Source: Antedon mediterranea | Taxonomy: Eukaryota; Animalia; Echinodermata | Assembly (NCBI RefSeq): GCF_964355755.1 | Contig: NC_092676.1 | Span: 1,679,788-1,743,787, forward strand | Length of the DNA: 64,000 bases | Reading direction: 5' to 3' | Part shown: positions 20,130-64,000 of the stretch, one piece after another | Layout: each line of letters begins with the position of its first letter | Numbering within the stretch: position 1 is the first letter of the stretch | Notes under the pieces: generated by a model | What the model saw: only the letters and a program-made list of their open reading frames with translations | Databases searched by the model: none | What the model was told of the DNA's origin: nothing | Made by a program: the position numbers and the translations under genes

Positions 20130-21314
20130 ATGATGACTTTGAAAATCGTTAATCTGTTGGTGATGACCTGCTTGTTGATATTCACACATGGAGGAGCTTC
20201 AAGAAGTTTGGTAAAATTTAATCAGAAGTTTCACTACTCATCAACAAGTAAGGTAAACATTACAATCACAGCATCAAGTATACAACTGAATGTTACTGAT
20301 CGCTCAGGAAAATCTATGATACTTAAATGTCTAATTTTTTTTTCGTTTGGTTCTAATCAAGGACTATACGCTTGCGAAAATGATAATTCTCAATATACTA
20401 TTAATACACCGAATGTAACATTAACCAAATCTCAACCAGAACTTGTAAAACTCTATTGTGACGGTATGAGAGACATCGTTGAAGGAGAGGAAGTACACAT
20501 TTCATGTGATTTGATCAGAAAAGATGACAACATCCAATATGAAGTTACAATTGGTTGGATCCAAGGAAAGCACAACATCACACAGTCTCATCAAGCAGAT
20601 ACTAACATTACAATTGATCTGACTATAAAAGGTTTTCATTCTGGAGAAGGGGTATTTTACTACTGTATTTCAACTCAGAATAACATTAACTGCTGTAAAT
20701 TGGAATTAACGGTTTACCGTCAATTAAAGGTAGAGGTTAAGAGGTTGCATGTAATACCTGAAGTTGATGTGAACCAGAATTGCTTCAAGTGCTATGCAGA
20801 AGGTGGATCTGGTGACAAAACAATTTATAATTGGAGTTTGAATGGAGAGTCCCAGTATCAGTATTATGACAATGATGAAAGGTGCTTTGGTAATTTACCA
20901 GCTGGTAACTACACTGTGAAGTGTCTGGTGAGTACTGATGTTCAGAACAAATCTGATGAGATAACATTAACAATTAAGGATGCCATAACAACAGACAAAA
21001 TGGTAACATCTCAAAACATTAATAATATATTACCAACAGACACAATGACAACATCTCAAAATATCAATTATGTCATCCCAACAGAAACAATGACAACTAA
21101 TGAAATAATCATAATCCTGGCAACAAGTAATATCATGATGGTGATGATTGCACCAAGTGTATGTGTGGTGTGTTATTACAAACGTAAGAAACACAGAAAC
21201 AGACCACAACCTGTTGTGTACTATCAAAGAAACAGGGACTCATCTGGAAGTGAATATTCTGACGTTCTACCGATCGACATGGATGAACCGATATATCATG
21301 CAATAACACAGTAG
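20130..21314 (+). CDS. Receptor copy 1 (intact, 394 aa): single-ORF type I membrane protein, 3 Ig-like domains, Tyr-motif tail
   Basis: Signal peptide MMTLKIVNLLVMTCLLIFTHGGA; NQGLYAC, VEGEEVHISC..W..YYC, CYAEGG..YNW..GNYTVKC; TM IIIILATSNIMMVMIAPSVCVVC; tail SEYSDV...EPIYHAI. Confidence 0.9.
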   Translation: MMTLKIVNLLVMTCLLIFTHGGASRSLVKFNQKFHYSSTSKVNITITASSIQLNVTDRSGKSMILKCLIFFSFGSNQGLYACENDNSQYTINTPNVTLTKSQPELVKLYCDGMRDIVEGEEVHISCDLIRKDDNIQYEVTIGWIQGKHNITQSHQADTNITIDLTIKGFHSGEGVFYYCISTQNNINCCKLELTVYRQLKVEVKRLHVIPEVDVNQNCFKCYAEGGSGDKTIYNWSLNGESQYQYYDNDERCFGNLPAGNYTVKCLVSTDVQNKSDEITLTIKDAITTDKMVTSQNINNILPTDTMTTSQNINYVIPTETMTTNEIIIILATSNIMMVMIAPSVCVVCYYKRKKHRNRPQPVVYYQRNRDSSGSEYSDVLPIDMDEPIYHAITQ

Positions 21315-21720
21315 ATCTTGCGGAAAATGTATTCTAATGGTTGATTTTCATGCTCGCAAACCTTTTGTACTCAGGTGATTTTTGCCAAAGGAAAAATATA
21401 TTAACGATAGCATACATCATCAACACTTGGATGAGACAAATGATAACGATTGGTGTTACGGTGTGGTGTCCTATGGCAGAATTTACTGCAACTTATTCAC
21501 TTTATGCTGCATAACTAGTTTTAGCAAAATCATTCCAAGTGAAAGACTGCTTAATATTGATCTATAACACTACTATACATTTTTAAATCATACAAAAACA
21601 CTTTAACTAACATAATAATGATATGTATTTAGTATGCTGTTTTTGTTTTCTAATCTTTACTATACAAAATTTAGTCTCAACTGTTTCATGTGAATTTTGT
21701 CAACACAAAAAATAAGATTC

Positions 21721-21900
21721 GTAGTGAAGCTGTAGCTTGGTGGTTAACGCGCTTGCCTTCCAATCCTAATGTCCGGGTTCAATCCTGACCTAGTGCCAGT
21801 GAGACGTTATAAGCATGATAAACTATTAAATAGTTTATCTCATCCTGTAATTGGCGAGGGAGTTTGTGTTCGCTGTTGGATGAGTATGAAATAAATAAAT
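21721..21900 (+). mobile_element. tRNA-derived SINE
   Basis: A box TAGCTTGGTGG, B box GGTTCAATCC, (AAAT)n tail. Confidence 0.7.
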
Positions 21901-22519
21901 ATACATATATATCTGATATCAAATAATAATTCATAAATATCTTTAGATTTTAATTTCTTAAATTTTCGGCTAGTTGTGATGTGCTTAAATGCATTTCAGA
22001 TGTCACGAAAGGAGGCGAATAATTACATTTTATGTTTTATACTTTCGTTTAATTCTTAAATTGAAAGCCTAAAATCCAGCCAATCACGGACATTTTGACC
22101 GTTGTTCATTAGATATCATGGTCATCGGTCATGAGTCGAAACATTTTATCAATATTAATACAAAATTAGTCATTTTCATAATCAGTTCTCAACCCTATGT
22201 CAAATATCAATAAATCTGGTTATCTTCATCATCATCATTGCAGGGGGTTCGTTTTCACGGCATCTATCAAGTTCAGAATATTCCCCATCTGCTTTAATAA
22301 GTTCTGAATCGAAATTCATCATTATTTTTTTCTTAATCGATCAGTTCTCAACACTATGTCAAAATATTAATAAAAATAAATTTGGTTAAATATCAAAATA
22401 TCATAAAAATTGGAGGGAGTTTGTTAGTCAAGGCATCTATCAAGTCCCAACCCCCTGTGACAGAATATTCATCAAAGATTTTTAACTTTTCATATTTTTA
22501 TTAACATGATTGTACCTAC

Positions 22520-22678
22520 TCTGAATTTTTAACTTTTTAACTTTTATACAATCAGAATTTTTAACTTTTATACAATCAGAATTTTTAACTTTTATACAAT
22601 CAGAATTTTTAACTTTTATACAATCAGAATGTTTAACTTTTATACAATCAGAATTTTTAACTTTTACACAATCAGATT
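22520..22678. repeat. 24-bp minisatellite (AATCAGAATTTTTAACTTTTATAC), ~6 copies
   Basis: Direct tandem repeat. Confidence 0.9.
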
Positions 22679-23508: not shown

Positions 23509-24545
23509 ATGAATTTGAAATTGCTTATTCTGTTTGTGATGACCTGCTTGTTGATATTCAGACATGGAGGAGCTACAAGACGTTTGGTAAAATTTAACAG
23601 GAAATATCACTACTCATCAACAAGTAAGGTAAACATTACAATCATACCGGTAATACACCAAAAGACTGTTGAGCGATTAGGAAAATATGAAACAGTTAAA
23701 TGTCCACTTTTCATTTCGTTTGGTTCTAATCAAGGACTATACTTATGTCAATTGGATGATAATACTACATTTTCTATTTACACGTCGGGTGTAACATCGA
23801 CCACATGTCAACCAGAACTTGTAAACCTCTATTGTGACGGTATGAGAGACATCGTTGAAGGAGAGGAAGTACACATTTCATGTGACTTGATCAAGAACTC
23901 TGACTATGATCAACACGAAGTAACAACTTTTTGGGTTCAAGGAAAGCACATTACACAGATTCATCATACAGATGCTGACATGACAATTAATCAGACTCTT
24001 AAAGGTTTTTATTCTGGACAAGGGATATTTTTGTACTGTATTTCATTTGAGAATAGCATTAACTGCTATAGATTGACTATGAAAGTTTATCCCCTATTAA
24101 TGGAGAGGTCCAAGGTGTATATGAAAACTCTGAAGTTGATGTGAACCAGAATTGTTTCAAGTGTTATGCAGAAGGTGGATCTGGTAAGATAATATATAAT
24201 TGGAGTTTGAATGGAGACGAATTGCAGTATCATTTCTATGAAACTGATGAAAGATGCTTTGGTAATTTACCAGCTGGTAACTACACTGTGAAGTGTCTGG
24301 TGAGTACTGATGTCCAGAACAGATCTGATGAGATAGCATTCACAATCAAAGATGACATGTTAAGAGATAAAATGGCAACTAGTAAAATAACCATAATCTT
24401 GGCAACAAGTAATATTATACTGATCATTGCACTTGTGTGTGTTGTGTGTTATGACAAACTTAAGAAGAAACATGACAACACACCACAACCTGCTGTGTAC
24501 TATCAAAGAAACAGGGATTCAACTCGTACGTATGAATTCTTCTGA
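23509..24545 (+). pseudogene. Receptor copy 2, frameshifted near 24100-24120
   Basis: ORFs 23455-24144 and 24141-24545 together align to copy 4; three 1-nt indels within ~20 bp (net -1). Confidence 0.85.
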
Positions 24546-26015: not shown

Positions 26016-26175
26016 TTCAGTCTCTCATTAAACTCACAATTTAGAGGTTGGATGTTCAGTCTCTCATCAAACTCACAATTTAAATGTTGGATGTTCAGTC
26101 TCTCATCAAACTCACAATTTAGACGTTGGATGTTCAGTCTCTCATCAAACTCACAATTTAGACGTTGGATGTTCA
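26016..26175. repeat. 39-bp tandem repeat (4 copies) immediately upstream of receptor copy 3
   Basis: TTCAGTCTCTCATCAAACTCACAATTTAGACGTTGGATG units. Confidence 0.9.
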
Positions 26176-26200
26176 CAAACTGCATAAACAGAAGTTGTTA

Positions 26201-27392
26201 ATGATGACTTTAAAATCGTTTAGTCTTTTGGTGATGACTTGCTTGTTGATATTCAGACATGGAGAAGCTGCTTCCAAAAGTTTGATAACATTTAACAGGG
26301 AGTATCAATACTCATCAACACATGAGGTAAACATAATAATCAAACCATCAAGTTTACAACATGATGTTCTTTCATCAGGACAAGAAATCACAATTAAATG
26401 TCAACTTTTCATTTCTTTTGATCCTCAAGTAGGAATATGCATGTCAATATTATGAATATTATTATAGACAAAGTTACGTTTTTGCAGAGGTTATAAAATC
26501 ATCCGCCTTATCTCAACCCCACTTGGTAACACTTTATTGTGACGGTTTAAGAAACATCATCAAAGGAGAGGAAGTACGCATTTCATGTGACATGAGGAAA
26601 CAATTTGACAACATCCAGTATGATGGGACGATTGGGTGGATACAAGGAAAGCACCATGTTACACAGTCTTATTATAGTGCAGATACTGACATTACAATTA
26701 ATCTGACTTTAAAAGGTTTTTATTCTGGAGAAGGGATGTTTTTCTACAGTTTTTCAGTTGAGAATACCATTAGATTCTATACAGTGGAGTTGATAGTTTA
26801 CCCTCAATTAAAAGTAGAGATTAAAAGGTTATATAAAACACCTGAAGTTGATGTGAACCAGAATTGCTTCAAGTGCTATGCAGAAGGTGGATCTATAGAC
26901 AAAACAATTTATGATTGGAGTTTGAGAGGAGAGGAATCTCAGTATCTGTATTACAATGAAACCAATGAAATGTGTTTTAGAAAGTTACCAGCTGGTAACT
27001 ACACTGTGAAGTGCCTGGTGAGTACTGAAGTTCAAACCAGATCTGATGAGTTAACATTCATAACTGAAGATGCAATGAGAAGAGACATCATATTTACTTC
27101 ATCTCAAAATGACAATAATGCATTACCAAAAGAAACCATGGCAACTAATAATAAAATAATCATAATCCTGGCAATAAGTAATATCATGATGGTGATGATT
27201 GCACTAAGTGTAATTGTGGTGTGTTGTTACAAACGTAAGAAACACAGAAACAGACCACAACCTGTTGTGTACTATCAAAGAAACAGGGACTCATCTGGAA
27301 GTGAATATTCTGACGTTTTACAGATCGACATGGATGAACCGATATATTATGCAATTAAAGATACAGTAGAAATTGCGGAAAATGTATTCTAA
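26201..27392 (+). pseudogene. Receptor copy 3, 2-nt deletion near 26438
   Basis: GGAATATGCATGT here versus GGAATATACGCATGT in paralogs; downstream frame open to 27392. Confidence 0.85.
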
Positions 27393-29020
27393 TGGTTGAT
27401 TTTCCGGCTCGAAAACCTTTTGTACTTTTGGGAGAGGGAAAATATATGTAACTATAGCAAACATCATCAGCACTTGGATGAGACAAATGATCATGATTGG
27501 TGTTCTGCTTTAGGGCTCCCATGGCAGAATTAAATGCAACTTATTCTTTTAAAAAAATTGTTTTTAAATGTGTACTTTAAAAAAAAATTTACACTTTTCC
27601 AACCTCAAAACTTTAAATAAATAACTTTAAATTGCATAAATAGTCTTTATTAAAATCATTCCAAAGGAAAACCTTAGTTTATAAGCATGATCAAATGTAA
27701 AATAGTTTATCCATTCCTTACTAAAACAAATTTTAGTAATGATAATTTTATCCATAATATTCAGAACATGCATCTATAGAAATATTGACAATTTCTTACT
27801 GTGAGTGTGGGTACTGTTAGATATATAAACACATAAATATACAAATAAACTTATTACTGATAGTTGCTTGTCAACATTTGTATTAATTAGTCATTTTTAA
27901 AAATCTAAACGTCGTAGTGATGTATCTTTACATATGTACTTTACTATTTCAATCGACTATGAAAGTGACAGTTCAACAAAAGTATTAAATCATCATTAGT
28001 GGTATATTATTTATAAATCATGAAAACAAATATTTCAATACTGAGTGGATAAAAGAATATATTTATAAATTGTTTCTCTTTGCACCCATCCTCTTACCTA
28101 TTCCTGGCTCAACCCTAATGTTACATACAAAACAAAAATTTGGTTTGTTTAAATTTTCTGACAAGTTTTTTCTTTCAGAAGTGATTCTCAGGGTGCTAAT
28201 TTTAATTGACTACATTCGAATCAGTGTCTATTTATTTGTTCCTGTAAACTACATGTATTTTATAGTCCTGCGGTATACGTACATTTGAAATTTCTTTTTT
28301 GAATTTTTTTTTTAATATTCTAAAACCATCTGTTGGCACGACCTCTAGTAGTTATCTAATTTGACCAAAAAATTGGATCGAGAAAAAAAATGTATTTACC
28401 TGAAAAAAAATGTAATTGAAAGCAAAAAATGGTCAAATTGGCTGCCAGGCAATGGGGTTTTGGTTGAATTTAACCATTCATTTTGTCATTTTATAAGTGA
28501 AAACATATTTTTTATTTTTCTTGTACGGAAGAGATTAACTTTATTAAAACTACAACATAACATATTCAAAGTCTGATTTTAATTCATCTTCATGTTTCAT
28601 GTTCAAATTCAATGAGCAATTGTATTTACTGTAGTGTATGGGTGATGATTTTACTAAAGTGTCAACACCTTTTTGCTATATCATAACAATAATATTTTCT
28701 ATACGTCAACAAAAGATATTTTTCTATTTCCTCAAACAAGGAATAGAAACTCTCTCTTAATCTTTACAATGAGCAATTGTATTTACTGAAGACTATGGGT
28801 GATGATTTTACAAAAATAGTAGGACAAACCAAAACACTATAAAACTAAAGTGTCATGAACTATGTTTACTTTTGTCACATCATAACAATAACATTTCCTA
28901 TACAACATATTATATTTCTTCCTTTTCCTCAAACAAGGAATAATAAAGACTCTAGTCTCTGACTAAATTAGAAAGTTGGATTTTCACAACTGAACAACAC
29001 ACAAAAAGAATGTTATAAAG

Positions 29021-30064
29021 ATGACTTTGAAAATTGTTAATCTGTTGGTGATGACCTGCTTGTTGATATTCACACATGGAGGAGCTACAAGAAGTTTAGT
29101 AATATTTCAAGCTAAGTTTCACTACTCATCAACAAGTAAGGTATACATTACAATCACACCAGTAATGAAACAACAGAAGGTTAATCGTTCAGGAAAATTG
29201 ACACGAGTTAGATGTCCACTTTTCATTTCGTTTGGTTCTAATCAAGGAATATACGCATGTTACTTTGATGATAATACTCAATATACTCTTTATACATCGT
29301 CGGGTGTGACATATACCACATCTCAACCAGATCTTGTAAAACTCTATTGTGACGGATTGAGAAACATCGTTGAAGGCGAGGAAGTAGACATTTCATGTGA
29401 CTTGATCAGAAAAGATGACAACATACAATATGAAGTGACAACTATTTGGGCTCAAGGAAAGCACAACATTACACAGATTCATCGTGTAGATACTAACATT
29501 ACAATTATTCAGACTCTTAATGGTTTTCATTCTGGAGAAGGGGTATTTTTTTACTGTATTTCATTGGAGAATAGCATTAATTGCTATAGATTCACTATGA
29601 CAGTTTATCCCCAATTAATGGTAGAGGTCACAAGGGTATATGAAAACTCTGAAGTTGATGTGAACCAGAATTGTTTCAAGTGTTATGCAGAAGGTGGATC
29701 TGGTAAGATAATTTATAATTGGAGTTTGAATGGAGACGAATTGCAGTATTATTTCTATGAAACTGATGAAAGATGCTTTCGTAATTTACCAGCTGGTAAC
29801 TACACTGTGAAGTGTCTGGTGAGTACTGATGTCCAGAACAGATCTGATGAGATAGCATTCACAATCAAAGATGACATGTTAAGAGATAAAATGGCAACTA
29901 ATAAAATAACCATAATCCTGGCAACAAGTAATATCATACTGATCATTGCACTTGTGTGTGTTGTATGTTATGACAAACTTAAGAAGAAACATGACAACGC
30001 ACCACAACCTGCTGTGTACTATCAAATAAACGGGGATTCAACTCGTACGTATGAATTCTTCTGA
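29021..30064 (+). CDS. Receptor copy 4 (intact, 347 aa), short stalk, short tail ending TYEFF
   Basis: Same architecture as copy 1; lacks the SEYSDV and EPIY motifs. Confidence 0.9.
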   Translation: MTLKIVNLLVMTCLLIFTHGGATRSLVIFQAKFHYSSTSKVYITITPVMKQQKVNRSGKLTRVRCPLFISFGSNQGIYACYFDDNTQYTLYTSSGVTYTTSQPDLVKLYCDGLRNIVEGEEVDISCDLIRKDDNIQYEVTTIWAQGKHNITQIHRVDTNITIIQTLNGFHSGEGVFFYCISLENSINCYRFTMTVYPQLMVEVTRVYENSEVDVNQNCFKCYAEGGSGKIIYNWSLNGDELQYYFYETDERCFRNLPAGNYTVKCLVSTDVQNRSDEIAFTIKDDMLRDKMATNKITIILATSNIILIIALVCVVCYDKLKKKHDNAPQPAVYYQINGDSTRTYEFF

Positions 30065-31613: not shown

Positions 31614-32750
31614 ATGATGACTTTAAATTTGTATATTCTTTTGGTGGTGACTTGCTTGTTGATATTCAGACATGGAGGAGCTTCAAGAAGTTTGGTAACA
31701 TTTGATGCTAAGTTTCACTACTCATCAACAAGTAAGGTAAACATTACAATCACACCATCAAGTAAACAACAGAATGTTACTCGTTCTGGAAAATCTATGA
31801 TACTTAAATGTCCACTTTTCTTTTCGTTTGGTTCTAATCAGGGAATATACGCATGTGAATATGATAATTCTCAATATACTATTTATACATCAGATGTAAC
31901 ATTGACCAAATCTCAACCAGAACTTGTAAAACTCTATTGTGACGGTTTGAGAGACATCGCTGAAGGAGAGGAAGTACACATTTCATGTGATTTGATCAGA
32001 AAAGATGACAAAATCCAATATGAAGTGACAATTGGTTGGATCCAAGGAAAGCACAACATCACACAGTATCATCAAGCAGATACTAACATTACAATTGATC
32101 TGACTATAAAAGGTTTTTATTCTGGAGAAGGAGTATTTTACTACTGTATTTCAACTCAGAATAACATTAACTGCTATAAATTGGAATTAATGGTTTACCG
32201 TCAATTAAAGGTAGAGGTTAAGAGGTTGCATGTAATACCTGAAGTTGATGTGAACCAGAATTGCTTCAAGTGCTATGCAGAAGGTGGATCTGGTGGCACA
32301 ACAATTTATAATTGGAGTTTGAATGGAGAGTCCCAGTATCAGTATTATGACAATGATGAAAGGTGCTTTGGTAATTTACCAGCTGGTAACTACACTGTTA
32401 AGTGTCTGGTGAGTACTGATGTTCAGAGAAGATCTGATGAGATAACATTAACAATTAAGGATGCCATAACAACAGACACAATGACAACATCTCAAAATAT
32501 CAATTATGTCATCCCAACAGAAACAATGACAACTAATGAAAAAATCATAATCTTGGCAACAAGTAATATCATGATGGTGATGATTGCACTAAGTGTAAGT
32601 GTGGTGTGTTGTTACAAACGTAAGAAACACAGAAACAGACCACAACCTGTTGTGTACTACCAAAGAAACAGGGACTCATCTGGAAGTGAATATTCTGATG
32701 ATCTACAGATCGACATGAATGAACCGATATATCACGCAATAACACAGTAG
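31614..32750 (+). CDS. Receptor copy 5 (intact, 378 aa)
   Basis: Start MMTLNL chosen by homology; D2, D3 and tail nearly identical to copy 1; tail SEYSDDL...EPIYHAI. Confidence 0.9.
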   Translation: MMTLNLYILLVVTCLLIFRHGGASRSLVTFDAKFHYSSTSKVNITITPSSKQQNVTRSGKSMILKCPLFFSFGSNQGIYACEYDNSQYTIYTSDVTLTKSQPELVKLYCDGLRDIAEGEEVHISCDLIRKDDKIQYEVTIGWIQGKHNITQYHQADTNITIDLTIKGFYSGEGVFYYCISTQNNINCYKLELMVYRQLKVEVKRLHVIPEVDVNQNCFKCYAEGGSGGTTIYNWSLNGESQYQYYDNDERCFGNLPAGNYTVKCLVSTDVQRRSDEITLTIKDAITTDTMTTSQNINYVIPTETMTTNEKIIILATSNIMMVMIALSVSVVCCYKRKKHRNRPQPVVYYQRNRDSSGSEYSDDLQIDMNEPIYHAITQ

Positions 32751-33919
32751 AACTTGTGGACAACGTTTTCAGGTTCCGGTGATTTCAGATGATGCAAACC
32801 AATTTTTAGTTTTGCTTTGGCAGAGGAAAAAACTATATGTACTATAGCATACATCATCAACACTCGGATGAGACAATGATCACGATTGGTGTTCCGCTGT
32901 GGGCTTTGCAAGGCAGAATTTATGAAACTGAAACTTATTCTTACAAACATTTTTTTTTAATGTGTGTAAACTTTTTTTAACCTCAATATACGGCTAATAT
33001 AAGAAGGTTGATTTAAGAAGGGACAGTATCCTAGTAAATTAGTAACTTTAATTAACTAACTTTATACTGCATAGTTTTTAGTAAAATCATTCCAAGGGAA
33101 AGACTGCTTAACATTTAACTATAACACTACTATACATTTTAAAATTTATATGTACTACGGTATATATATATTAATATTATAAAATACAGTAAAAAACATA
33201 TGTTTTTATTCAGATTAAAAAGCATGCATTTATATAAATTTGTTTTTACACTTGACTGATGTTAAGTTTGAGTATCTCATAATAATAGGCAATGTTTAAA
33301 ACCAATTTTAAAGCCCACCATTTTAATTGTTGTTGGTTTTGACACTCAAAAGAATTACATAGATGAATACAGTGTTAAATTGTTTTTTATTAATTCTCTT
33401 TTGAATTATTAAAAGAAGGAACTAGATGCCACATTGATGATAGCTGAAAACAGTATTTCAACTTAATTATAAAGCAATTTAAATCTGTAAACAGCTTTGC
33501 TTTGCGTTGACATACAAAGAAGCACACTTAAAATTATGATCATTATAAAAAATATTAGTTTGTATAAAAGTTTACTTACAAAATACAGTAATATTAACGT
33601 TTTAAAAAATACGTTGTGTATGAAGCATATAATAATAAAAAAATTAAACTATTTATCAATGTAGAGTTAACTCTCAACACACACAAGTTTTTAATCAATC
33701 TTGTACATGTCATATATTATTTTATTTTATATCTTAACTTGTAATCATATATTAAATATGTCATATTGAATGAATGAATTGAATTTACCTAATGTTATTT
33801 ATTTCTGTCATTAGTTACCATACTTTCTCTCATAACAACATTTTCCTGTCAAAAAAAACACAATTTAAATTGAATACTGTACATAGGCACTCAATACTCA
33901 AAAGCAAAAAAATTATAAT

Positions 33920-36354: not shown

Positions 36355-36379
36355 CAAACTGCATAAACAGAAGTTGTTA

Positions 36380-48533: not shown

Positions 48534-48823
48534 ATATAGCACTCCTATGTCACCTTTGACACTGTGATTGAAAACAAAAGGTTACAAAATGCAAGAAATG
48601 AGAACAGAGAGACAGAATAACTATGTTAGCTCATGTAAATATTATTCTTCACAAAATTAGTTTGGATATTAAAGTAGCAACAAAAACCAAAACTCAAATA
48701 CTAAATATTATTTTTTGTGTTACTATATTATAAACCTACACAAATACAAACTTCACTTTATCCCTGGCCACATCAGGAAAAGATTTGATTTTCACAAAAA
48801 ACAATTCAGAGAGGTTTTTAAAG

Positions 48824-49108
48824 ATGACTTTGAAATTCATTAACTTGTTGGTGATCTGCTTGTTGATATTCAGACATGGAGCTTCAAGACAGTTGGTACA
48901 ATTTAAACGAGGTTTTTATTACCAATCAAACACAGACCTACAACCTGTGACAATTAAATCATTAAATGAAAAACAGGAAATGCTCGATTTACCAGGAAAA
49001 GATATAACTTTGAAATGCCAACTTTTAATTTCTTTTGGTCAACTAAATGGAATATACACATGTCAAGATGATTATAGTTTACAATATTTGGTTCCTTCAT
49101 CAGATGTT
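48824..49108 (+). pseudogene. Receptor copy 9, truncated after domain 1 at a MITE terminus
   Basis: Matches copy 12 up to CAGATGTT, then joins TAAGAATACGGGCGTA. Confidence 0.85.
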
Positions 49109-49443
49109 TAAGAATACGGGCGTATGTTTGACGAAAACGAAGAAATATATCATGTTGACGTATAGGAAATATTATTGTTATAATAATATAGCAAAAGGAA
49201 ACAGATGATAACACTTCAGTTTTATATTGTTTTGATTTGTCCTGCTATTTTAGTAAAATCTTCACCCATACTTCAGTAAACACAATTGCTCATTGTAAAG
49301 ATCTATATCATAACAATAATATTTACAACATAATATATTTCTTCATTTTTCTCAAACAAGGAATAATAAAGACTCTAGTCTCTGACCAAATTAGAAAGTT
49401 GGATTTTCACAACTGAACAAAACACAAAAAGGTTGTTATAAAG

Positions 49444-50191
49444 ATGAAAATCGTTAATCTGTTGGTGATGACCTGCTTGTTGATATTCAGACATGGAGGA
49501 GCTTCAAGAAGTTTGGTAACATTTGATGCTAAGTTTCACTACACATCAACAAGTAAGGTAAACATTACAATCACACCATCAAGTGAACAACATAATGTTA
49601 CTCGTTCAGGAAAATTTACACTAGTTCAATGTCCACTTTTCATTTCGTTCTAATCAAGGACTATACTCATGTCACTTTGATGATAATTTTCAATATACTT
49701 TTTATACATCGGATCTACATACCACCACATCTCAACCAGAACTTGTAAAACTCTATTGTGACGGTATGGGAGACATCATTGAAGGAGAGGAAGTACACAT
49801 TTCATGTGATTTGATCAGAAAAAATGACAACATCCAATATGAAGTGACAACTATTTGGGTTCAAGGAAATCACAACAACATATCAAAAAAGTATTAGTGA
49901 CGCCATACAAACAGAATGACAACATCTCAAGATATCAAATGTTCCGTGCCAACAGAAACCATGACAGCTAATAAAATAATCATAATACTGGCAACAAGTA
50001 ACATCATACTGATATTGATAGTTTTACTTGTGTGTGTTGTATGTTATTATGAACAACAAAAGAGGAAACATCAGAACACACCTGTACCTTTTGTGCACTA
50101 TCAAAGTAATAATGACACAATTACGCCCGTATTCTCAAACTGGACTTTAGTCGTAGTTCGAGCTAAAACTTTAAAAATGACGTCATTTTAA
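49444..50191 (+). pseudogene. Receptor copy 10, deletion chimera (5' like copies 8/11, 3' like copy 12) with a MITE-derived C-terminus
   Basis: 5-nt deletion at ~49649; jump from mid-D2 to the stalk at ~49875 across an ACAAC microhomology. Confidence 0.85.
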
Positions 50192-50438: not shown

Positions 50439-53400
50439 AATAATAATTTATCTGGAAAACGCTTTTTGAACAGCGGCACACATAATAATGGTGCATCCTT
50501 AAAACAATTAAACATACAATATAAAAATATATGAGTATAAAAATAAAGATAGACTAGATTAAAACAGATAATGCTCAGATAAAACGGAAGTTCGATAAAA
50601 CCAAATTAAAAATAAACTGTAATACTAAAACCAATTAAATGCAACCCACATACATAAGCTTGGACACTAAATTAGCATATCAATTAGTATATGAACAAAT
50701 GAATATACAGTACTTAGAATCTATGTTAAGATATACACATTCTTGATACACAGTGTCTACCAGCAAAAATAATAAGGAACAATAGGAACCCAAATTAGGG
50801 ACATCAATAAACAGGAAAGCATAGATTAAATTATTTCAGCTGTGGTGAATTATTTGATGACTGTAAACAGAATTGATATAAAAAAAAAGAAAAAGAACAA
50901 AGTAAGATATAACTAAACCAAATTACATACAATAAAAAATATAAAAAATCATTCGATAATGTTAGACTTTATACGTTGTCTAAAGGCCCATGCTTTCTTA
51001 AGATATGATTTGCAGAATTTATCAAGAATGTCATGGGCTTTGTTTACCATATTAATCGACATTGTTGGAATGAGAACAAAACAATCACCACCAAGTATAA
51101 TCATTAAGATAACCTCTGAATTATTTAACTGGAGTGAATTCCATAGATCTGAAAGACCAGAATCATTAAGGTTTTGTTCCAAGCATTCAAATTCTGAAAT
51201 TCGCACTTCTTGTAGTACTTTACAATTTAACATAAAATGATATAAATCTTCAGGTTCATCCTTACATAACATACAATTACCAGTATTATTCATATCCCAT
51301 TTACTTAATCTACTTTCAAGTTGAATAGTATTTGACCTTGCCTTAAATTTCAATTGAGCACCGTGAAAATCAGTTTTAACAGTAAGATAATTTTCTAACT
51401 CAGGCATTTTTTTAAATTTAACATAAAGTGATAATGATGGTTTGGTACAGCTTTTATTAAACCAATCCAATTAATACATTTTACGATTAACACACTTAAA
51501 AGATTTAAACCATGCTGAATCTATAGGTATGTTATTTGAAAATACATGATTAAATCCAGTATTATTCAGAATACTTTTAATTGAGTTTAACCATCGCCAT
51601 TTTATATTAACATTATTATCATGCAAGGTAAATAATGCATGCAACAGCAGCTTTGGCCAACGATGGGCTTCTAAGTTGATAAGCCTGTCAAAATATTTAA
51701 TTTTTATTTCATTAGGGGTATTTTCAATGCTATCCCATCCTAAGTCACCCAACAGAGCCAATGATGGCGTGTTCCTCGGTGCTTTTAGTAGTGTTTTAGC
51801 CATTTGTAGCTGACTGTTTTCGATTTTTTTGTAATCACTGCCACTATAAGCTGATATTGCACATGCGTAGTTAATTGAAGGTAGTGCTATAGTTTTCCAC
51901 AAGATATTACCAAAATAAATCCTATTAAAATCTTCTTGCTCATTAATAATGGACTTGATATATCCAATTAATCTATTTCCTTTTCTAACTACATCATTAA
52001 CATGTATACTTTCGGAGAAGTTTCTTGAAATATTCACTCCCAAGTATTTGTAACAATCTACTTCTTTGATGAAGTGGTTTGCAAGAGGCCATTGTTTAGT
52101 TTTATTAGTACGTTTACCAACAACCACAACATTTGATTTGTCATAATTAAAGTTAAGTTTCCATTTTTTGGGGAAAATTCCAGCGATAGATAACATTTTC
52201 TCCAGATCATTTTCATCTTTAGCAATCAAGACAACGTCGTCAGCCCAAAAAAGACAGCTAATTTTTGTGCCTAAAGTATGACATCCGACATTTTCATTAT
52301 ATAACATTTTGGAGAGTTCATTTATAAAAATACAAGGTCGGTGATAATACGCAGCCTTGCTTAACCCCTTCATCGACATCAAAATAATCAGTTACAAAAT
52401 CACCAAACTTAACATTACATTTGACATTTGTCTAAAGTTTATCAATAATTTTCCAGACTTTACCATGGATACCAGTATTCCATGCTATTGACAAAAGGCC
52501 ATTACGCCAAACCGTGTCAAAAGCCTTACGGAAATCCAGGAAGGCTAAGTATGTTAACTTATTTTCCGCATTTCGCGTAGCCAATATGCTTTTAAGTGTA
52601 AATATGTGGTCCTCACATCTATGATTTTTCCTAAAGCCTCCCTGGATTTCCGTAAGAATACTATTACTCTCAAGAAATTCTGAGATACGATCACAAATAA
52701 TACGATTGAAAATTTTAGCAACACATGATAATAATGTGATACCTCTATAGTTATTTAAATCGTTCTTGCTACCTTTTTTATTGATAGGTATAATGATCCC
52801 TTTATTCCACTCGGTGGGAATTTTCTCTGATTTAACAAAATAGTTAAAAAGATATGTAAGTGACCTAATAAGGCAGTCACCTCCGTTCTTTAACAATTCG
52901 TTAGTGATGCCATCAACACCAGGTGCTTTATTGTTTTTAGAACGAAGTATTGAACTTTTAACATCTTCAAATGAAATTCTTATATCATCCAGTACTTTTT
53001 GTGGATCATCATTAACATAATTTATATAATTTTCCCTAACATCAGAAACATGACTATTGATAACTATATCATTATAAGTATTGACACCAGTTTGATTACC
53101 CAAGTTACTCCAATAAATTTTAATCAAGTTAGCCATAACCTGTTTGTCTGAGGTAACTTGTGTAGAGTCGGGAATTTTTAGGTTAGAAGGAACAATTACC
53201 TTCTTAGGCCCCTTAATTCGTTCCAAAAATCTTTAGAACTCTGACCACCTGCTTTCGCTATGGCAACACTTTTGTCAACTTTCAATTGCATCATTTTATT
53301 TTTTATTAAATTTTTCGCTTGAGTTTTTTTAATTTTATAATCCTTCCATAAAGCATCCCCCTTATCAAGATCTGTCCTATTATGTTTAGACCATGCACGG

Positions 53401-55867: not shown

Positions 55868-56729
55868 GTTCACAAAAACCGTAGGACGGGGCACAGGGGA
55901 GTTTGTTCGAAACTCCAACCCCTCCCCTGGCTATGCGTTTTGACTTTTCATGCCTCCTTTACAAACCAAGATTATTAGAAGGATATTAGGAGGATCAAAC
56001 ACAATTCTTGTTGCCAGATTTCATTGACATTACAGGTATGAAGTCTATCAATATACAGTACCGCTTAATACAATACTTGTTGAGGCCAAAAAAAAAAGTC
56101 GATTTATATCAATATACTCATCAACATAATGTACGTGCAATTCACGTCTTTATTCATCTACAATCAATAGTGTTAATTCCACTTTTAAAAGTCGATTTAT
56201 ATCAATATACTCATCAACATATGTACGTGTCCACGTCATATTCATCTACAAATATTAGTGTTATTTCACTTTTAAAAGTCGATTTATCAATATACTCATC
56301 AATAAATGTACTTTTCCACGTCATATTCATTTACAAATCAGTGTTATTTCACTTTTCGAAGGCAATTATATCAATATAGGCCTACTCATCAACATGTACG
56401 TGCAATTCACGTCATATTCATATATGATCAATAGTGCCAATATGACACCTATTCATTTACACAGTTTACAACGTACCTCTCTCATTTTGAATTTGTCCTG
56501 CACTGGGAAGAATTTGTTTTTGAAAAAGAGTGTGGGGTTTTATTGAAGAGGAGTGGAGGTTGGTGAGTATAGGGAGATATTAAGAATTAGAAGAATTTAT
56601 TTCTAACAAATCAGCCGAGTGTTTGGTGTGATTGAGTTGGTGAGTATAGGGAGATACTGACGTCCAGGGGGTTATGAGGTCCATCAAATTAATCGGAATT
56701 TCATTGAGACAGTTTTAAACTAACTTGGA

Positions 56730-58935
56730 AACCCGCCCTGGGGCGGGTATAATTGCTAGTATTTTATATACCTGCATTGGCCAATGTTTAGCCTTTGTTA
56801 CCCAGACGTGTGCAACTCGACTAAAAGCTCGACTTTATTAAGTCGAACTGCAAACTTTGACTACTTCGTTTTTGAATCGAATATGAAGCAATAGCTCGAA
56901 ATACGACTTTTTCAAGTCGAACTTCGAACTACGACTAAAGTCCGGTTTAAGAATACGGGCGTATGTTTGAGGAAAACGAAGAAATATATCATGTTGACGT
57001 ATAGCAAATATTATTGTTATAATATAGCAAAGGAAACAGATGATAACACTTCAGTTTTATATTGTTTTGATTTGTCCTGCTATTTTAGTAAAATCTTCAC
57101 CCATACTTCAGTAAACACAATTGCTCATTGTAAAGATCTATATCATAACAATAAAATTTACAACATAATTATTTCTTCATTTTTCTCAAACAAGGAATAA
57201 TAAAGACTCTAGTCTCTGACCAAATTAGAAAGTTGGATTTTCACAACTGAACAAAACACAAAAAGGTTGTTATAAAGATGAAAATCGTTAATCTGTTGGT
57301 GATGACCTGCTTGTTGATATTCAGACATGGAGGAGCTTCAAGAAGTTTGGTAGCATTTGATGCTAAGTTTCACTACACATCAACAAGTAAGGTAAACATT
57401 ACAATCACACCATCAAGTGAACAACAGAATGTTACTCGTTCAGGAAAATTTACACTAGTTCAATGTCCACTTTTCATTTCGTTTGGTTCTAATCAAGGAC
57501 TATACTCATGTCAATTTGATGATAAAACTCAATATAGTCTTTATACATCGGATATAACACATACCACCACATCTCAACCAGAACTTGTAAAACTCTATTG
57601 TGACGGTATGGGAGACATCATTGAAGGAGAGGAAGTACACATTTCATGTGATTTGATCAGAAAAAATGACAACATCCAATATGAAGTGACAACTATTTGG
57701 GTTCAAGGAAATCACAACATTATACAGACTCATCATACAGATACTGACATGACAATTAATCAGACTCTTAAAGGTTTTCATTCTGGAGAAGGGCTGTTTT
57801 GGTACTGTATTTCATTTGAGAATAGAATTAATTGCTATAGATTGGCTATGACAGTTCATCCCCAATTAATGGTAAAGGTCACAAGGGTATATGAAGTTGA
57901 TGTGAACCAGAATTGCTTCAAGTGCTATGCAGAAGGTGGATCTGGTGACAAGAAAATCTATAATTGGAGTTTGAATGGAGAGAAAATCAAGAATTACAAT
58001 GAACCTGATGAAAGATGCTTTAGTGATTTACCCGCTGGTGACTACACTGTCAAGTGTCTGGTGAGTACCGATTTTCAGAACAGATCTGATGAGATAGAAT
58101 TCACAATTGAAGCAGAAACCATGACAGCTAATAAAATAATCATAATACTGGTATCAAGTAACATCATACTGATATTGATAGTTTTACTCATGTTTGTTGT
58201 GTGTTGGTATGAACAACAAAAGAGAAAACATCACAACACACCTGTACCAGCTGTGCACTATCAAAGTAATAATGACACAAATAGTGTTGGTGACACTTTA
58301 AATGTTTCCGGTGAAAATAATGAGATTTACTGTTCAATTGATGATCATACAGAAGAATAAATATAGCACTCCTATGTCACCTTTGACACTGTGATTGAAA
58401 ACAAAAGGTTACAAAATGCAAGAAATGAGAACAGAGAGACAGAATAACTATGTTAGCTCATGTAAATATTATTCTTCACAAAATTAGTTTGGATATTAAA
58501 GTAGCAACAAAAACCAAAACTCAAATACTAAATATTATTTTTTATGTTACTATATTATAAACCTACACAAATACAAACTTCACTTTATCCCTGGCCACAT
58601 CAGGAAAAGATTTGATTTTCACAAAAAACAATTCAGAGAGGTTTTTAAAGATGACTTTGAAATTCATTAACTTGTTGGTGATCTGCTTGTTGATATTCAG
58701 ACATGGAGCTTCAAGACAGTTGGTACAATTTAAACGAGGTTTTTATTACCAATCAAACACAGACCTACAACCTGTGACAATTAAATCATTAAATGAAAAA
58801 CAGGAAATGCTCGATTTACCGGGAAAAGATGTAACTTTGAAATGCCAACTTTTAATTTCTTTTGGTCAAACTAAATGGAATATACACATGTCAAGATGAT
58901 TATAGTTTACAATATTGGGTTCCTTCATCAGATGT
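56730..58935 (+). repeat. Near-identical duplication of ~46905-49107
   Basis: Offset ~9825; includes MITE end, upstream region, gene 8/11 and the start of gene 9/12. Confidence 0.9.
57278..58360 (+). CDS. Receptor copy 11 (intact, 360 aa)
   Basis: Same architecture; differences from copy 8 are concentrated in the signal peptide and D1. Confidence 0.9.
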   Translation: MKIVNLLVMTCLLIFRHGGASRSLVAFDAKFHYTSTSKVNITITPSSEQQNVTRSGKFTLVQCPLFISFGSNQGLYSCQFDDKTQYSLYTSDITHTTTSQPELVKLYCDGMGDIIEGEEVHISCDLIRKNDNIQYEVTTIWVQGNHNIIQTHHTDTDMTINQTLKGFHSGEGLFWYCISFENRINCYRLAMTVHPQLMVKVTRVYEVDVNQNCFKCYAEGGSGDKKIYNWSLNGEKIKNYNEPDERCFSDLPAGDYTVKCLVSTDFQNRSDEIEFTIEAETMTANKIIIILVSSNIILILIVLLMFVVCWYEQQKRKHHNTPVPAVHYQSNNDTNSVGDTLNVSGENNEIYCSIDDHTEE

Positions 58936-60119
58936 TGCACAGAGAAAACGTCCACCACAGTATGTACAATTTTACTGTGACAAATATGAAAGACATTGTT
59001 GAAGGACAGAATGTATACATTTCATGTGACTTGAATAGGAAAAATGACAACTTCCAATATGACACAACAATTGGTTGGATCCAAGGATAACACAACATTA
59101 CACAATTTCATCATCTAGATACTGACAACACTACAACCATTAATCAGACTTTAAAAGGATTTCATTCCAGAGAAGGAATATTTTTCTACTGTTTTTCAAA
59201 TCTAAACCAAAGAACATATGTGAGTATTAAGTGCTACACATTGGTATTGCTGGTTCATCCTCAATTTAGGAGTGGAGCTGTGGCTTGGTGGCTACCAATC
59301 TAAGGGTCCTGGGTTCAAGTCCTGTCATATGTCAGGGTTTTTTTCTCATGAAAATTTACAACTCCACTCCCAAAGACTTTGTTTATGTAGAGCATCTTGT
59401 GTATATGTTTGTCTTATATGTTCTAGTGCAGTATAAGGAGAGCCATCTCGATAGTGCTTTGCACTCATGGCAATCCTCAGGGTGCTGCACCGCTGTATTG
59501 TCATGTATTGTTGTGCCTGAAAATTGAATAAAACATAAAATAAAACATAAAACAATTAAAGGTAGATGTTACCAGGTTGTATGAAACACATGATATTGAT
59601 GTGAACCAGAATTGCTTCAAGTGCTATGCAGAAGGTGGATCTGGTGACAAGGGAATTTACAATTGGAGTTTGATAGGAGAGGGCTTCCAGTATCAGTATT
59701 ATAATGAAACTGATGAAAGATGCTTTGGTAATTTACCAGCTGGTGACTACACTGTTACGTGTCTGGTGAGTACTGATATTCAGAACAGATCTGATGAGAT
59801 AACATTTACAATTGAAGATGCTATGCTAGCAATGACAACATCTCAAGAAATTATTAGTGACGCCATACAAACAGACAGACTGACAACATCTCAAGATATC
59901 AAATGTTCCGTGCCAACAGAAATCATGACAGCTAATAAAATAATCATAATATTAGTAACAAGTAACATCATACTGATAGTTTTCCTTGTGTTTGTTGTGT
60001 GTTATTATGAACAACAAAAGAGGAAACAGCAGAACACACTTGTACCTTTTGTGCACTATCAAAGTAATAATGACACAATTACGCCCGTATTCTCAAACCG
60101 GACTTTAGTCGTAGTTTGA
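58651..60119 (+). pseudogene. Receptor copy 12: frameshift, nonsense codon (59088), SINE insertion, MITE-derived tail
   Basis: ORF pieces 58612-58899, 58875-59090 and 59577-60119 align in order to the family. Confidence 0.85.
59267..59552 (+). mobile_element. tRNA-derived SINE with CAATT target-site duplication
   Basis: Interrupts CATCCTCAATT|AAAGGTAGA; A/B boxes, A-rich tail; homologous to 10258-10450. Confidence 0.9.
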
Positions 60120-61184
60120 GCTAAAACTTTAAAAATGACGTCATTTTAATTCATAAACCGAACTTCAACTAAATCGCCGACTAATTCAGGCCAACCTCGA
60201 CTAAATCGAGACGGATTTTGATCGATTTTTTTAGTCCTGGAGGGGGCAGGCTAAATGGTCGACTAAATGGTTTTTAAACGATGTTTATGAAAAACGTAAC
60301 AGTCATTGAGTTGTTATATTGGCCAGATATTGAAGAATGAAATATCTATTTTTATATTAGCTTAATTAAATATACATTGGTATAAGTTATAATAATGAAA
60401 ATCATCTTGAACTACGTCACGCCATATAATAGCGACAATGGCAGATGCGGAAATTCACAACGCGATGGAATGTTTACATTTATATATAAGTATATAATCT
60501 TACATGGCTTCCCAATTATATACAAGTTTTCAGTTGGATTTTTTTTTTCCAATTGATAGATAACTTTCTTGGGTTTTTTTGCCTCTTTCATTTTCAACTG
60601 AATCACCTTTTTCATACATTATGATTTACTTTATTATAACTCTAAAAAAAATATATATATAAAATATCAGTAATTATAATGTTTTACTTAAATATAAATA
60701 TGAAAGAAATAAATGTTTATTTCAACCATTGAACACGCTATGAAGTGCGTAGTTCGTCGCGATCATACTTTGTTGGGGGCCTAGAAAATATAAAAGTTAC
60801 CGTACCGCCATGGTTCCTAAATATAGTTGTTTGTTGTTAATCAAAAGTACTTCACTGTTAAATTAATACTGATCTTGTTCTAATAATTAACGATTACAAT
60901 TATTTTTCATGTATATAGTCCTGATGCGTACCCTAAAAAGTGTTGTAAGAAAATGGAAAGTGATATCAATGCGCAAAATTTCGTCTGCTCCTCAAATACT
61001 CTCTTGTCATTGACCAATATTTAGCCTTTGTTACCCAGACGTGTGCAACTCGACTTCATTAAGTCGAACTGCAAACTTCGACTACTTCGTTTTTGAATCG
61101 AATTTGAAGTAATAGCTCGAACTATACGACTTTTTCAAGTCGAACTTCGAACTACGACTAAAGTCCGGTTTAAGAATACGGGCG
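60081..61184. mobile_element. ~1.1-kb MITE with CGCCCGTATTC TIRs
   Basis: Left TACGCCCGTATTCTCAAACCGGACTTTAGTCGTAGTT, right AACTACGACTAAAGTCCGGTTTAAGAATACGGGCG. Confidence 0.85.
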
Positions 61185-61362
61185 AGAATCTTTACAATGA
61201 GCAATTGTGTTTACTGAAGTATGGGTGAAGATTTTACAAAAATAGCAGGACAAATCAAAACAATATAAAACTGAAGTGTTATCATCTGTTTCCTTTTGCT
61301 ATATTATAACAATAATATTTGCTATACGTCAACATGATATATTTCTTCGTTTTCCTCAAACA

Positions 61363-61409
61363 TACGCCCGTATTCTTAAACCGGACTTTAGTCGTAGTTC
61401 GAAGTTCGA
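61363..61409 (-). mobile_element. Isolated inverted MITE right end
   Basis: TACGCCCGTATTCTTAAACCGGACTTTAGTCGTAGTTCGAAGTTCGA is the reverse complement of the right terminus. Confidence 0.8.
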
Positions 61410-62836
61410 GCCGGTCAGTCTAATTATCGAAAACAACCGAAAATAAGCAAAAACAACCGAAAACAACCATAAACAACCGAAAACGAACCGAAAACAAAAT
61501 AAAACAATCTAAATACCGAAAACAAATTTGTATAATATTTTTTTAGGGACTATAAAGTATACTTAAAACAAGCTCACGATAAAGGATTCACAATAAAATC
61601 TATTTAGATTACCGTAGTCGAGTAAATAACGTTTTTATCCTTAATCACTTCAGTATCACTTCGAAAACCGGGGACGAAAACGCAAAGTTAGGTAAAATCA
61701 TGCTTTGTTTTTTAAAAGACTAAAAACGAAATGTGTTTATAGATTTTGTAAGTAAATGTATTCTACGGTGTATTTCATTGAATTTGTACGATTTTGAGTT
61801 GTATTTTGTGCACACTACCATTTACTGAATTTTACAATTTATATGCACCACTATCTCTATAAGTATTACAAAATACAGTAAAAATAATATGTTTTTATTA
61901 ATAAATAATAATATAGTCAGATTTATATTATAGCGCATATAAACGATGTCTCTATGTGCTCGATAATAAAGAGAAAGAGATTAAAAATCATGCATTTATA
62001 TAAATTTATCATAGTTTAAGTTTAAACTTGACTGATGTTATAAGTTTGATAAATACACATTTGATTATCTCATAATCAATAGATAATTTTAAAGCCCACC
62101 ATTTTGATTTGGTTGGTTGGTTTTGACACACAAAAGAATTACATAGATGAATACACAGTGTTAAATTGTTTTTATTATTCTGTCTTGATTGATTAAAAGA
62201 AGGAACTAGATGTCACATTGATGATAGCTACCTTACTGAATACAGTATTTCAACTTAATTATAAAACAATAACTTTAAATCTGTAAACAGCATTGCTTAG
62301 AATGACCTGTTCTTATAACAAGAAGCACACTATATCTACTAGTTTATTGATAATGTATAATATATAGTTTAGTTATTAAAGATATAAAACATAATGTAAA
62401 CTAGTATTAAACATTACTGGTATTATACTGGTCCACTATACGCTGTCTGTGCACTGTGTAATAGGATAATATGAAGGAAGTACAGTAGGCCTATTTGGCA
62501 TAGTATAGTGAGGGTGGCAGTGGAGTAGGCAATACGTAATTGTTCTGCTTGCATTTATCTAAAAATACACATTGGTTAAAACTAATTGACAATATTTCAA
62601 AAACTATATTGATACTAGTGTCTTGATCTATACTGTATAGTGAATAACAACCATCTGTTTAAAAATCTGAACAAAAAAAAACACATTAAGTTGTATAAAT
62701 GTTTATCTTACAATAGTATTATATTAAAGTTTTAAAAGCCAATGTCAAATGATAAATCATAAAATAATTTATCCACGCATTCTGTAAATTGGTGAGTTAC
62801 TCGCTGTTCGATGCGTATGAAATTAAAACAGATATA

Positions 62837-63175
62837 CCGTATTGTTTCTAATAAATAAAAAGGGGGGGGGGGCGTTTATTGGAGGTAAATTTCAACACCC
62901 AAAATTACCTGAACAGGCTGCTTTAAAACAGTTAAAAAGTTTGTTATTTGTTGAAAAACAATTTAATGTGCAAGCTATATCTAGGCCATATTCCGTTTGC
63001 TACAGTAGTTATTTGAACAGCAATAAGTTCATCGCTAGTGGGTGAAATAAATATATTTTCTTTTATTACCAATCTAACGCTCCTATATGGACTGGATACA
63101 CATGCAATTCTATTTGAGCACTCATTACAATATGGAAACAATCTCAGAGCGGGCGTTTATTAGGAAACAATACGG
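62837..63175. mobile_element. Tc1/mariner-pogo-type MITE
   Basis: TA|CCGTATTGTTTCTAATAAA...TTTATTAGGAAACAATACGG|TA. Confidence 0.85.
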
Positions 63176-63917
63176 TAGGTATTCATGTGTAGAACATATA
63201 GCATATAGCATAACATAGCATTTGTATAGTGCAGAACAAAAGCTCATGAAGCTTAAATTAAAACATGGAGGTATAAAATTAGAATAATTAAATTTTATAC
63301 CTCCATGATTGAAGGGTTATTTTTTCAATGAACTCCAAGTGCAAACAAGTTTTTAATTCATCTTGTACATGTCATAATATTACTGTATTTCATATATTTC
63401 TTTGCAATTGTAGTAGTGCATTAAAATATTACTGTTGAAAATGAATTAATTTACCTATATCAGTATCTGTCATTGGTTTACCATACTTTCTCTCATGGCA
63501 AAATTTTCCTGTAAAAAAATAAAAAAAAAAAAAAAATTTAATTTAGTACTGGACATTGACACTGGTTACAGCCGACACTTAACACTAAAAAGTAAGAAAA
63601 CAAAAGTTAGTAAATCACAGATAATGATTATCTCGTTAAACTGTATGGGGTTTCAGGAAAATTAACTGTGCACAGAATTATTTTACAATGCTTTTTATAG
63701 TTAGCTTACACAAAATCTAGACTTCCTTTTGGCATAAATTATTATCCAATATTTCCGTATACAACAATATTCAACAATATTCTTCCTTGTTAAACCTATG
63801 CTTCCTTATATTATTAAAACACACTAAATGCAAACAGCACTTCAGTCTTTGAGCAAATTAGCAATTTAGATAATTGGATTTAACCAAACTGCATCAATAC
63901 ACAGAGGTTTTTTAAAG

Positions 63918-64000
63918 ATGACCCTAAAATTCATTTTGGTAGTGAACTGCTTGTTGATATTCAGACATGGAGGAGCTTCAAGAAGTTTAGTAATAATTAG
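63918..64000 (+). CDS. Receptor copy 13, 5' end only (runs off the window)
   Basis: MTLKFILVVNCLLIFRHGGASRSLVII matches the family signal peptide; not listed in the ORF track. Confidence 0.85.
   Translation, partial: MTLKFILVVNCLLIFRHGGASRSLVII

Follow-up and report, generated by a model that had tools for sequence, protein, structure and literature searches.

A tandem array of single-coding-exon genes for putative Ig-type receptors in the crinoid Antedon mediterranea

Echinoderm immune repertoires have been described mainly as expansions of TLR, NLR, SRCR and SpTransformer genes, and crinoids are called largely understudied in the available portion of one account (PMC13673367). The best-matching designs elsewhere differ in how they are built. 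In the accessible part of its description, the Alr system of Hydractinia has each immunoglobulin (Ig) domain, the ECS and the transmembrane segment (TM) on an exon of its own, with a V-set domain 1 and an Fn3-like membrane-proximal part (PMC9546547). The TLRs of sea urchins are mostly single-exon genes in tandem arrays, with 26% pseudogenes (PMC3367398, available portion), and an intronless gene for an Ig-containing FREP is reported from Aplysia (PMC11999971, available portion). Here, we describe an array of 13 paralogous genes in 64,000 nucleotides of Antedon mediterranea (NC_092676.1, positions 1,679,788 to 1,743,787; hereafter, the window). The explanation we prefer, to which we give about an even chance, is that these genes form a family in tandem, evolve by birth and death and encode, in a single coding exon each, type I membrane proteins that would serve as variable receptors for non-self recognition. 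The immune part of this explanation is an analogy drawn from architecture and evolution.

Layout and turnover of the array

By tblastn and six-frame reading, 13 paralogs were found on the plus strand between positions 20130 and 64000, six of them intact (copies 1, 4, 5, 6, 8 and 11, with open reading frames [ORFs] of 347 to 394 amino acids), six broken (copies 2, 3, 7, 9, 10 and 12) and one, copy 13, clipped by the window end (Table 1). This is exactly the count given by the first-pass annotation of this DNA. The same methods detected no copy in positions 1 to 20130. Successive copies start 0.6 to 8.8 kb apart in AT-rich animal DNA (25 to 40% GC), and identity to copy 1 among the intact copies is 57 to 90%, far above chance, with copy 5 as the sister of copy 1 and copy 6 as the most divergent.

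The coding sequence of each intact copy is one uninterrupted ORF in genomic DNA that begins, as annotated before, with a stretch resembling a signal peptide and continues with about 260 beta-rich residues, a Thr-rich stalk of varying length, a hydrophobic helix and a tail of 35 to 55 residues. The hydrophobic N terminus exceeded the hydropathy threshold in four of the six and was apparent in the alignment in all of them; likewise, all six have a single C-terminal hydrophobic helix followed by basic residues. The genes had been called intronless, which is borne out for the coding sequence, the untranslated regions (UTRs) lying outside that evidence. They had also been contrasted with spliced genes nearby, and this contrast had to be given up: the remaining coding sequences in the window resemble pieces of transposons (a weak DUF4806 match and reverse transcriptases of long interspersed nuclear elements [LINEs]), and therefore, the window holds no ordinary host gene with which a fair comparison could be made.

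TCAGTC or TCACTT, which read as initiator motifs, stands 65 to 76 bases before the start codon in 7 of the 13 copies, and a TAGTC variant was found in five more (background, 3.4% per 40-base window). TATAAA precedes the position of this motif by 24 bases in copies 9 and 12. These motifs suggest a short, unspliced 5' UTR, the copies being related sequences and not independent observations. Upstream of copies 3 and 6, the TCAGTC segment is multiplied by a 39-bp tandem repeat at 26016-26175 (4.1 units) and 36234-36354 (3.1 units). Also, a miniature inverted-repeat transposable element (MITE) of about 230 bp with 33-bp terminal inverted repeats (47134-47368, 49125-49358, ~28760-28935, 56917-57137 and 61140-61409) sits immediately upstream of four copies (4, 8, 10 and 11) and marks the beginning of the duplication that includes copy 10. 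The element could influence the promoter or cause rearrangements.

Duplication, unequal exchange and damage by transposons keep the array in flux. Copy 3 is a mosaic whose domain 2 is 97% identical to that of copy 6 and whose TM and tail are 94% identical to those of copy 1; copies 2 and 4 share 82% in the signal peptide and domain 1 and 96 to 97% in domain 3 and the tail; copy 10 joins a copy 8-like 5' half to a copy 12-like TM and tail; and copies 9 and 12 are 99% identical. A duplication of 2.2 kb (46882-49108 and 56705-58936; 97.8% identity) links copies 8 and 11. False haplotype duplication is ruled out as the source of most copies by identities of 60 to 90%; it is possible for the copy 8/11 pair, but the flanking insertions of the pair differ. 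Given the synonymous divergence found, the probability that a lineage under neutrality would stay free of stop codons is 0.4 to 2.4%. Since four independent lineages are open, the frames are evidently being maintained. The birth-and-death character proposed at first pass is thus supported: half of the copies are broken, segments are shuffled, ORFs have stayed open contrary to what neutrality predicts and divergence is fastest in the distal domain.

Ectodomain, tails and selection

An AlphaFold2 model of the ectodomain (pLDDT 84) matched the structures of CD22, Fc receptors and Dscam, with matches confined to domains 2 and 3; SYG-2, NCAM and contactin also ranked among the fold matches. Domains 2 and 3 superpose on d2-d3 of CD22 and of Fc-gamma-RI with a structural identity of 7 to 16% and are predicted to be Ig-like beta-sandwiches of seven or more strands. 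Their Cys-Trp-Cys cores (B-strand Cys, C-strand Trp and F-strand Cys) are C126/W143/C179 and C221/W235/C265 in copy 1, and among the intact copies the core was found in domain 3 of all six and in domain 2 of five. Copy 6 lacks two of the four cysteines of domain 2; the joint loss of C179 and C188 in copies 3 and 6 is a hint that they bond to one another and not in the canonical B-F bridge. Domain 1 is modeled with six strands and contains no Trp; its C67 and C82 are separated by 15 residues, with G-x-Y-x-C before the second Cys. It was barely spanned in the wide structure search, and in the searches with the ectodomain model, none of the structures matched it over its full length, although its Atlas features tend toward Ig (at most 0.86). 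The modeling and structure search that had been proposed for these proteins, run here on the ectodomain, therefore gave Ig-like matches for two of the three domains: the "triple Ig" and the "three Cys/Trp-patterned domains" of the first-pass annotation are upheld for domains 2 and 3 as predicted folds and go too far for domain 1. The latter could be either a binding fold not described before or an Ig domain that has been strongly reduced.

Sequence comparisons were less informative. None of the six intact copies matched a Pfam Ig model above the cut-off (best, Ig_2 with copy 5 at E = 0.091), and when whole and single-domain profiles were used to search PDB sequences, nothing reached significance. 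The top relevant rows, nonsignificant as well, were the F-G hairpin of an antibody light chain for domain 1 (E = 0.6) and, for domain 2, CD8 alpha (E = 0.79). Among the three domains, profile-profile comparison detected no internal repeat (probability ≤1.1%). A homodimer prediction for the ectodomain scored 0.00 in a run in which the alignment was not used, which makes it uninformative and not evidence.

The tails share a juxtamembrane [YH]YQ, present in all 11 that could be read, and differ beyond it. At the middle EYS position, copies 1, 3 and 7 have SEYSDV, a consensus immunoreceptor tyrosine-based inhibition motif (ITIM), which is degenerate in copies 5 and 6. An acidic I-Y-x-x-I lies distally in copies 1, 3, 5, 6, 7, 8 and 11, copies 2 and 4 end early with TYEFF, and copies 10 and 12 have no distal tyrosine. 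A tail ITIM of the consensus [ILVS]xYxx[ILV] is thus found in one of the six intact copies (copy 1) and in the broken copies 3 and 7. The tails of copies 4, 5, 6, 8 and 11 are without one, the match in copy 4 sitting at the TM edge. The distal motif, E-[PE]-I-Y-x-x-I in five of the six intact copies, lacks a hydrophobic residue at position -2; it resembles substrate sites of Src kinases such as EPIYA. No intact copy (0/6) has a strict ITAM (immunoreceptor tyrosine-based activation motif), Yxx[IL]x(6-9)Yxx[IL]; YSDV-x9-YHAI in copies 1, 3 and 7 comes nearest and is one residue off (Val in the first half). Moreover, none of the six has a charged residue (Lys, Arg, Asp or Glu) inside the TM, where a conserved polar Ser-Asn/Thr is present. 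The tyrosine-motif tails noted at first pass carry the distal motif in five of the six intact copies, copy 4 having a short tail without it. Similar ectodomains on differing tails would correspond to the layout of paired receptors, with signaling that is putative and deduced from motifs.

Rates of nonsynonymous to synonymous change (dN/dS) fell from the tip toward the membrane. A counting method gave 1.92, 0.93 and 0.56 for domains 1 to 3 and 0.89 (0.74 to 1.09) for the whole gene. Maximum likelihood gave 1.37, 1.02 and 0.63 with the six intact copies, none different from 1, and 1.08, 0.89 and 0.52 with per-domain trees of 9, 7 and 8 copies, for which columns next to gaps were removed (64 of 89, 91 of 98 and 68 of 88 codons kept). 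For domain 3, the value is lower than 1 (P = 0.007) and distinct from that of domain 1 (P = 0.019), with a borderline three-way test (P = 0.057). In site models, the inclusion of a class of codons above 1 was favored for domain 1 (P = 1e-5) and, with the intact copies, for the ectodomain as a whole (P = 0.0004), but not for domains 2 or 3. The codon models were custom scripts, with recombination and multi-base changes uncorrected. Furthermore, substitutions in domain 1 exceeded those in the rest of the duplicated segment in five of six sister comparisons, which overlap. These data support relaxed-to-diversifying evolution of the tip domain and constraint near the membrane, domain 3 and the TM being under purifying selection. 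Strong positive selection in domain 1 is suggestive only: its site-model signal is borne by two codons, and so small a number of sites weighs against a role of these proteins as variable recognition receptors.

Sequencing runs of two organisms contain array genes together with their flanks. A copy 6-like contig of organism B has 33 listed differences that touch 25 codons, 21 of them with nonsynonymous change. If the copies were receptors for gamete or species recognition on egg or sperm, such changes and the rapid divergence of the distal domain would be expected, as fertilization proteins of free spawners evolve rapidly in this manner. However, 21:4 is near the neutral site ratio of 3.4:1 and the numbers are small, and large, pseudogene-rich arrays with varied tyrosine tails are, in the accessible parts of the sources, more typical of immune families. 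We regard a role in fertilization as very unlikely.

The whole-gene dN/dS, 6 broken copies out of 12 and the many transposon insertions would also be expected if the array were mostly decaying, that is, if a dispensable membrane-protein gene had been amplified by unequal crossing-over and its copies were drifting. This is improbable in our judgment: open frames persist in four independent lineages, domain 3 and the TM are under purifying selection, the cysteines and the signal peptide are retained, and over 414 bases the copy 6-like gene of organism B has only deletions that keep the frame.

Relatives, further copies and possible functions

A single-sequence search of 5.8 billion proteins gave one match, and a profile search of 1.84 billion representatives gave 12, of which two align along the family. 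Both are A. mediterranea entries named "uncharacterized protein" in which the cysteines and Trp are kept. XP_071957072.1 (249 amino acids), a model without signal peptide and TM, is 59 to 61% identical in the ectodomain; XP_071950092.1 (499 amino acids; 39%) has a signal peptide, three domains, a TM and a tyrosine-bearing tail and may be an older single-copy relative of the array. The tail of the latter is lysine-rich, comprises 150 residues with three or four tyrosines and is unrelated to those in the window. Since the two lie on separate contigs (30.6 and 41.4 Mb), the family is likely not confined to one locus. For neither protein was a name, a Pfam family or a function found. The other 10 profile matches were rejected as members, because they are long repeat proteins (PKD, SprB, bacterial Ig and one fish multi-Ig protein) that match by summed weak stretches. 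No shorter (30 to 189 amino acids) or longer (875 to 2495) relatives were found, the range of about 690 to 875 being covered by the representative search only. As at first pass, no named family emerged from sequence, profile or structure searches. In the literature, of which most subscription journals lay outside coverage, no title or abstract start described this receptor family, and none was found that links Antedon with an immunoglobulin domain.

Could the genes derive from a virus or retroelement, for example, from a captured K1-like viral glycoprotein, which would explain the absence of coding introns? The K1 protein of KSHV is indeed among the nearest Atlas feature clusters (0.93). K1 itself combines Ig and ITAM, so that this match reflects design, the viral fold matches are generic beta-sandwiches, none of 84 pattern matches in viral contigs and none of 420 in JGI metagenomes was confirmed as a relative, and no PHROG family was found. 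We consider such an origin highly improbable; an ancient retrocopy of a host gene is possible.

That the protein searches found the family only in Antedon speaks against a function in adhesion or cell identity, in which each copy would be a surface label used in development, regeneration or nerve wiring, like the clustered protocadherins or Dscam. The adhesion proteins among the fold matches and an apparently separate promoter-like motif for each copy would fit such a code, and a large single exon per isoform is typical of protocadherin clusters. It is unlikely nevertheless, since half of the copies are dead and the tails are not shared, unlike in conserved wiring clusters, and domain 1 is under little overall constraint.

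Among 28 read variants checked, six have no match in the copies of the window, and thus, further copies or alleles exist. In run X1, the summed contig depth was 3,500 to 10,400 for a conserved stretch of domain 2 versus 165 to 175 for copy-specific domain 1 contigs; this difference of tens of times is a hint of additional copies, not a count of them. Over about 625 bases, copy 6 showed one difference in run X5, which is a second sample from a second study, and no difference in X1, possibly the source sample itself. X5 was considered as RNA and rejected: a summed depth above 17,000 for interspersed repeats and the coverage of intergenic pieces identify it as DNA, which is silent on transcription. 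The unmatched variants would be in line with an allorecognition locus in which, as for Alr1 and Alr2 of Hydractinia, cells bind each other in an allele-specific way and thereby distinguish self from other individuals. The broad design is that of Alr (unusual Ig domains, tyrosine motifs and many pseudogenes, in the accessible part of the source), and echinoderm allorecognition exists, with self-markers unidentified according to the available portion of PMC9763293. Against this stand the separate exons of the Alr domains, within the same limits, and the near identity of copy 6 in the second sample, which is thin evidence (one copy in one low-depth independent sample, the other copies being confounded by paralogs). 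Allorecognition is distinctly unlikely, and that half of the original proposal of an "immune or allorecognition receptor" is weakened accordingly.

If the copies are receptors for non-self recognition, the fast-changing domain 1 would sit at the tip and bind ligands from outside, probably microbial or parasite molecules, held away from the membrane by the two predicted Ig-like domains and the stalk. The proteins would be expected on coelomocytes or barrier epithelia. Src-family kinases would phosphorylate the acidic-Ile-Tyr-x-x-Ile motif of the tail, on which SH2 proteins or enzymes could dock, and recombination may re-pair ectodomains with different tails, so that one specificity would be given different outputs, as in vertebrate paired receptors. 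A more specific version, which is tentative and on the doubtful side, is a variable Ig-type repertoire of the crinoids' own, built of one-exon cassettes with a new binding domain on two Ig domains, in which recombination re-pairs activating, inhibitory and silent tyrosine tails. If true, echinoderms would have in this repertoire their own equivalent of vertebrate paired receptors, and it would be a candidate for the unknown echinoderm self/non-self receptor. One-exon genes are simple to amplify, genotype and express, and therefore, ligands, expression and polymorphism are directly testable.

Apart from the array, the window contains mobile and repetitive DNA. Two minus-strand ORFs at 13413-16201 (644 and 213 amino acids) resemble an intact DNA transposon; we take the larger, which has no Pfam or PHROG match, to encode the transposase. 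Probable spliced exons of a DUF4806-type transposon-associated gene lie on the plus strand at 9847-11817 (weak match, E = 0.074). A broken LINE with reverse transcriptase and zf-RVT matches (50949-53136, minus strand) separates copies 10 and 11, and a 27-bp minisatellite array (33919-35810) lies between copies 5 and 6 and yields a spurious ORF of 249 amino acids at 33935. Satellite arrays at 1-876 (183-bp units) and 18869-19458 (132/156-bp units) look related and are rich in ACGT words.

Table 1. Array copies and associated features (positions in the window)
Feature	Position	Strand	Description
TCAGTC initiator-like motif	20063-20068	+	67 bases 5' of copy 1 ATG; candidate transcription start
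Copy 1	20130-21314	+	Intact, 394 aa; signal peptide 20130-20195
Copy 1, domain 1	20196-20432	+	
Copy 1, domain 2	20433-20720	+	
Copy 1, domain 3	20721-20978	+	
Copy 1, TM	~21102-21179	+	Between Thr-rich stalk (with 45-bp repeat) and tail (SEYSDV + EPIYHAI)
Copy 2	23509-24545	+	Broken; frameshift near 24100 (domain 2/3 junction)
Copy 3	26201-27392	+	Broken; domain 1 frameshift near 26440
Copy 4	29021-30064	+	Intact ORF, 347 aa; short tail, end TYEFF
Copy 5	31614-32750	+	Intact, 378 aa from conserved ATG (in-frame ATG also at 31584); tail YSDD + EPIYHAI
Copy 6	36380-37549	+	Intact, 389 aa; tail YSAD + EPIYDAI
Copy 7, 5' part	38623-39245	+	Several frameshifts
Mobile DNA inserted in copy 7	39246-44592		~5.3 kb
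LINE-like reverse transcriptase fragments in insert	39584-40520, 41721-42587		
Inverted-repeat element in insert	43629-44587		21-bp units
Copy 7, 3' part	44593-45115	+	Rest of domain 3 (stop, frameshifts), TM, tail SEYSDV + EPIYYAI
Copy 8	47454-48533	+	Intact, 359 aa; stalk nearly absent; single distal EIYCSI in tail
Copy 9	48824-49105	+	5' fragment (signal peptide, most of domain 1); ends at start of copy 10 duplication
Copy 10	49444-50191	+	Chimera; frameshift near 49650; half of domain 2 and domain 3 absent
Copy 11	57278-58360	+	Intact, 360 aa
Copy 12	58651-60119	+	Broken; frameshifts, stop, insertion ~59270-59550
Copy 13	63918-64000	+	Signal peptide only, clipped by window end

Comparison with described receptor systems

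With Alr of Hydractinia, as far as the available portion of its description goes, the window copies share clustering, single-pass proteins with divergent Ig-like domains, ITAM/ITIM-type tails and many pseudogenes; disulfides between neighboring strands are predicted there and suggested here (PMC9546547). In contrast to the Alr genes, the copies are single ORFs and do not have one exon per domain. No Alr protein was among the 12 profile matches, and no direct pairwise comparison was made. Tandem Ig-like ectodomains with tyrosine-motif tails are also the design of vertebrate CD22/Siglec, Fc receptor/FcRL, CD2/SLAM and KIR/LILR proteins and of fish NITRs, and a carp multi-Ig protein matches the family profile via repeated weak stretches. 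The window copies differ from these families in their low structural identity, the lack of a Pfam Ig match above the cut-off, a noncanonical domain 1, the absence of a charged TM residue and the single coding exon.

The sea urchin TLRs are the echinoderm parallel for a single-exon, tandem, pseudogene-rich layout with an ectodomain more diverse than the signaling part (PMC3367398, available portion), whereas in structure and sequence these LRR-TIR proteins are unrelated to the window copies. As those arrays are mostly single-exon and tandem, with about a quarter of pseudogenes in the accessible part of the source, the single-exon structure is less of a surprise than it had seemed at first.

By analogy, the crinoid genes would work like the clustered Ig receptors of the Alr, KIR/LILR/NITR and Siglec types and yet be members of none, since exon structure, domain 1 and TM features do not agree with those types and no homology appeared in our searches. 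The array is a real and apparently undescribed crinoid receptor family of putative function. If the proposed function is true, a diversifying, tyrosine-signaling, Ig-like family in a crinoid would represent an independent origin of paired-receptor-like systems in deuterostomes.

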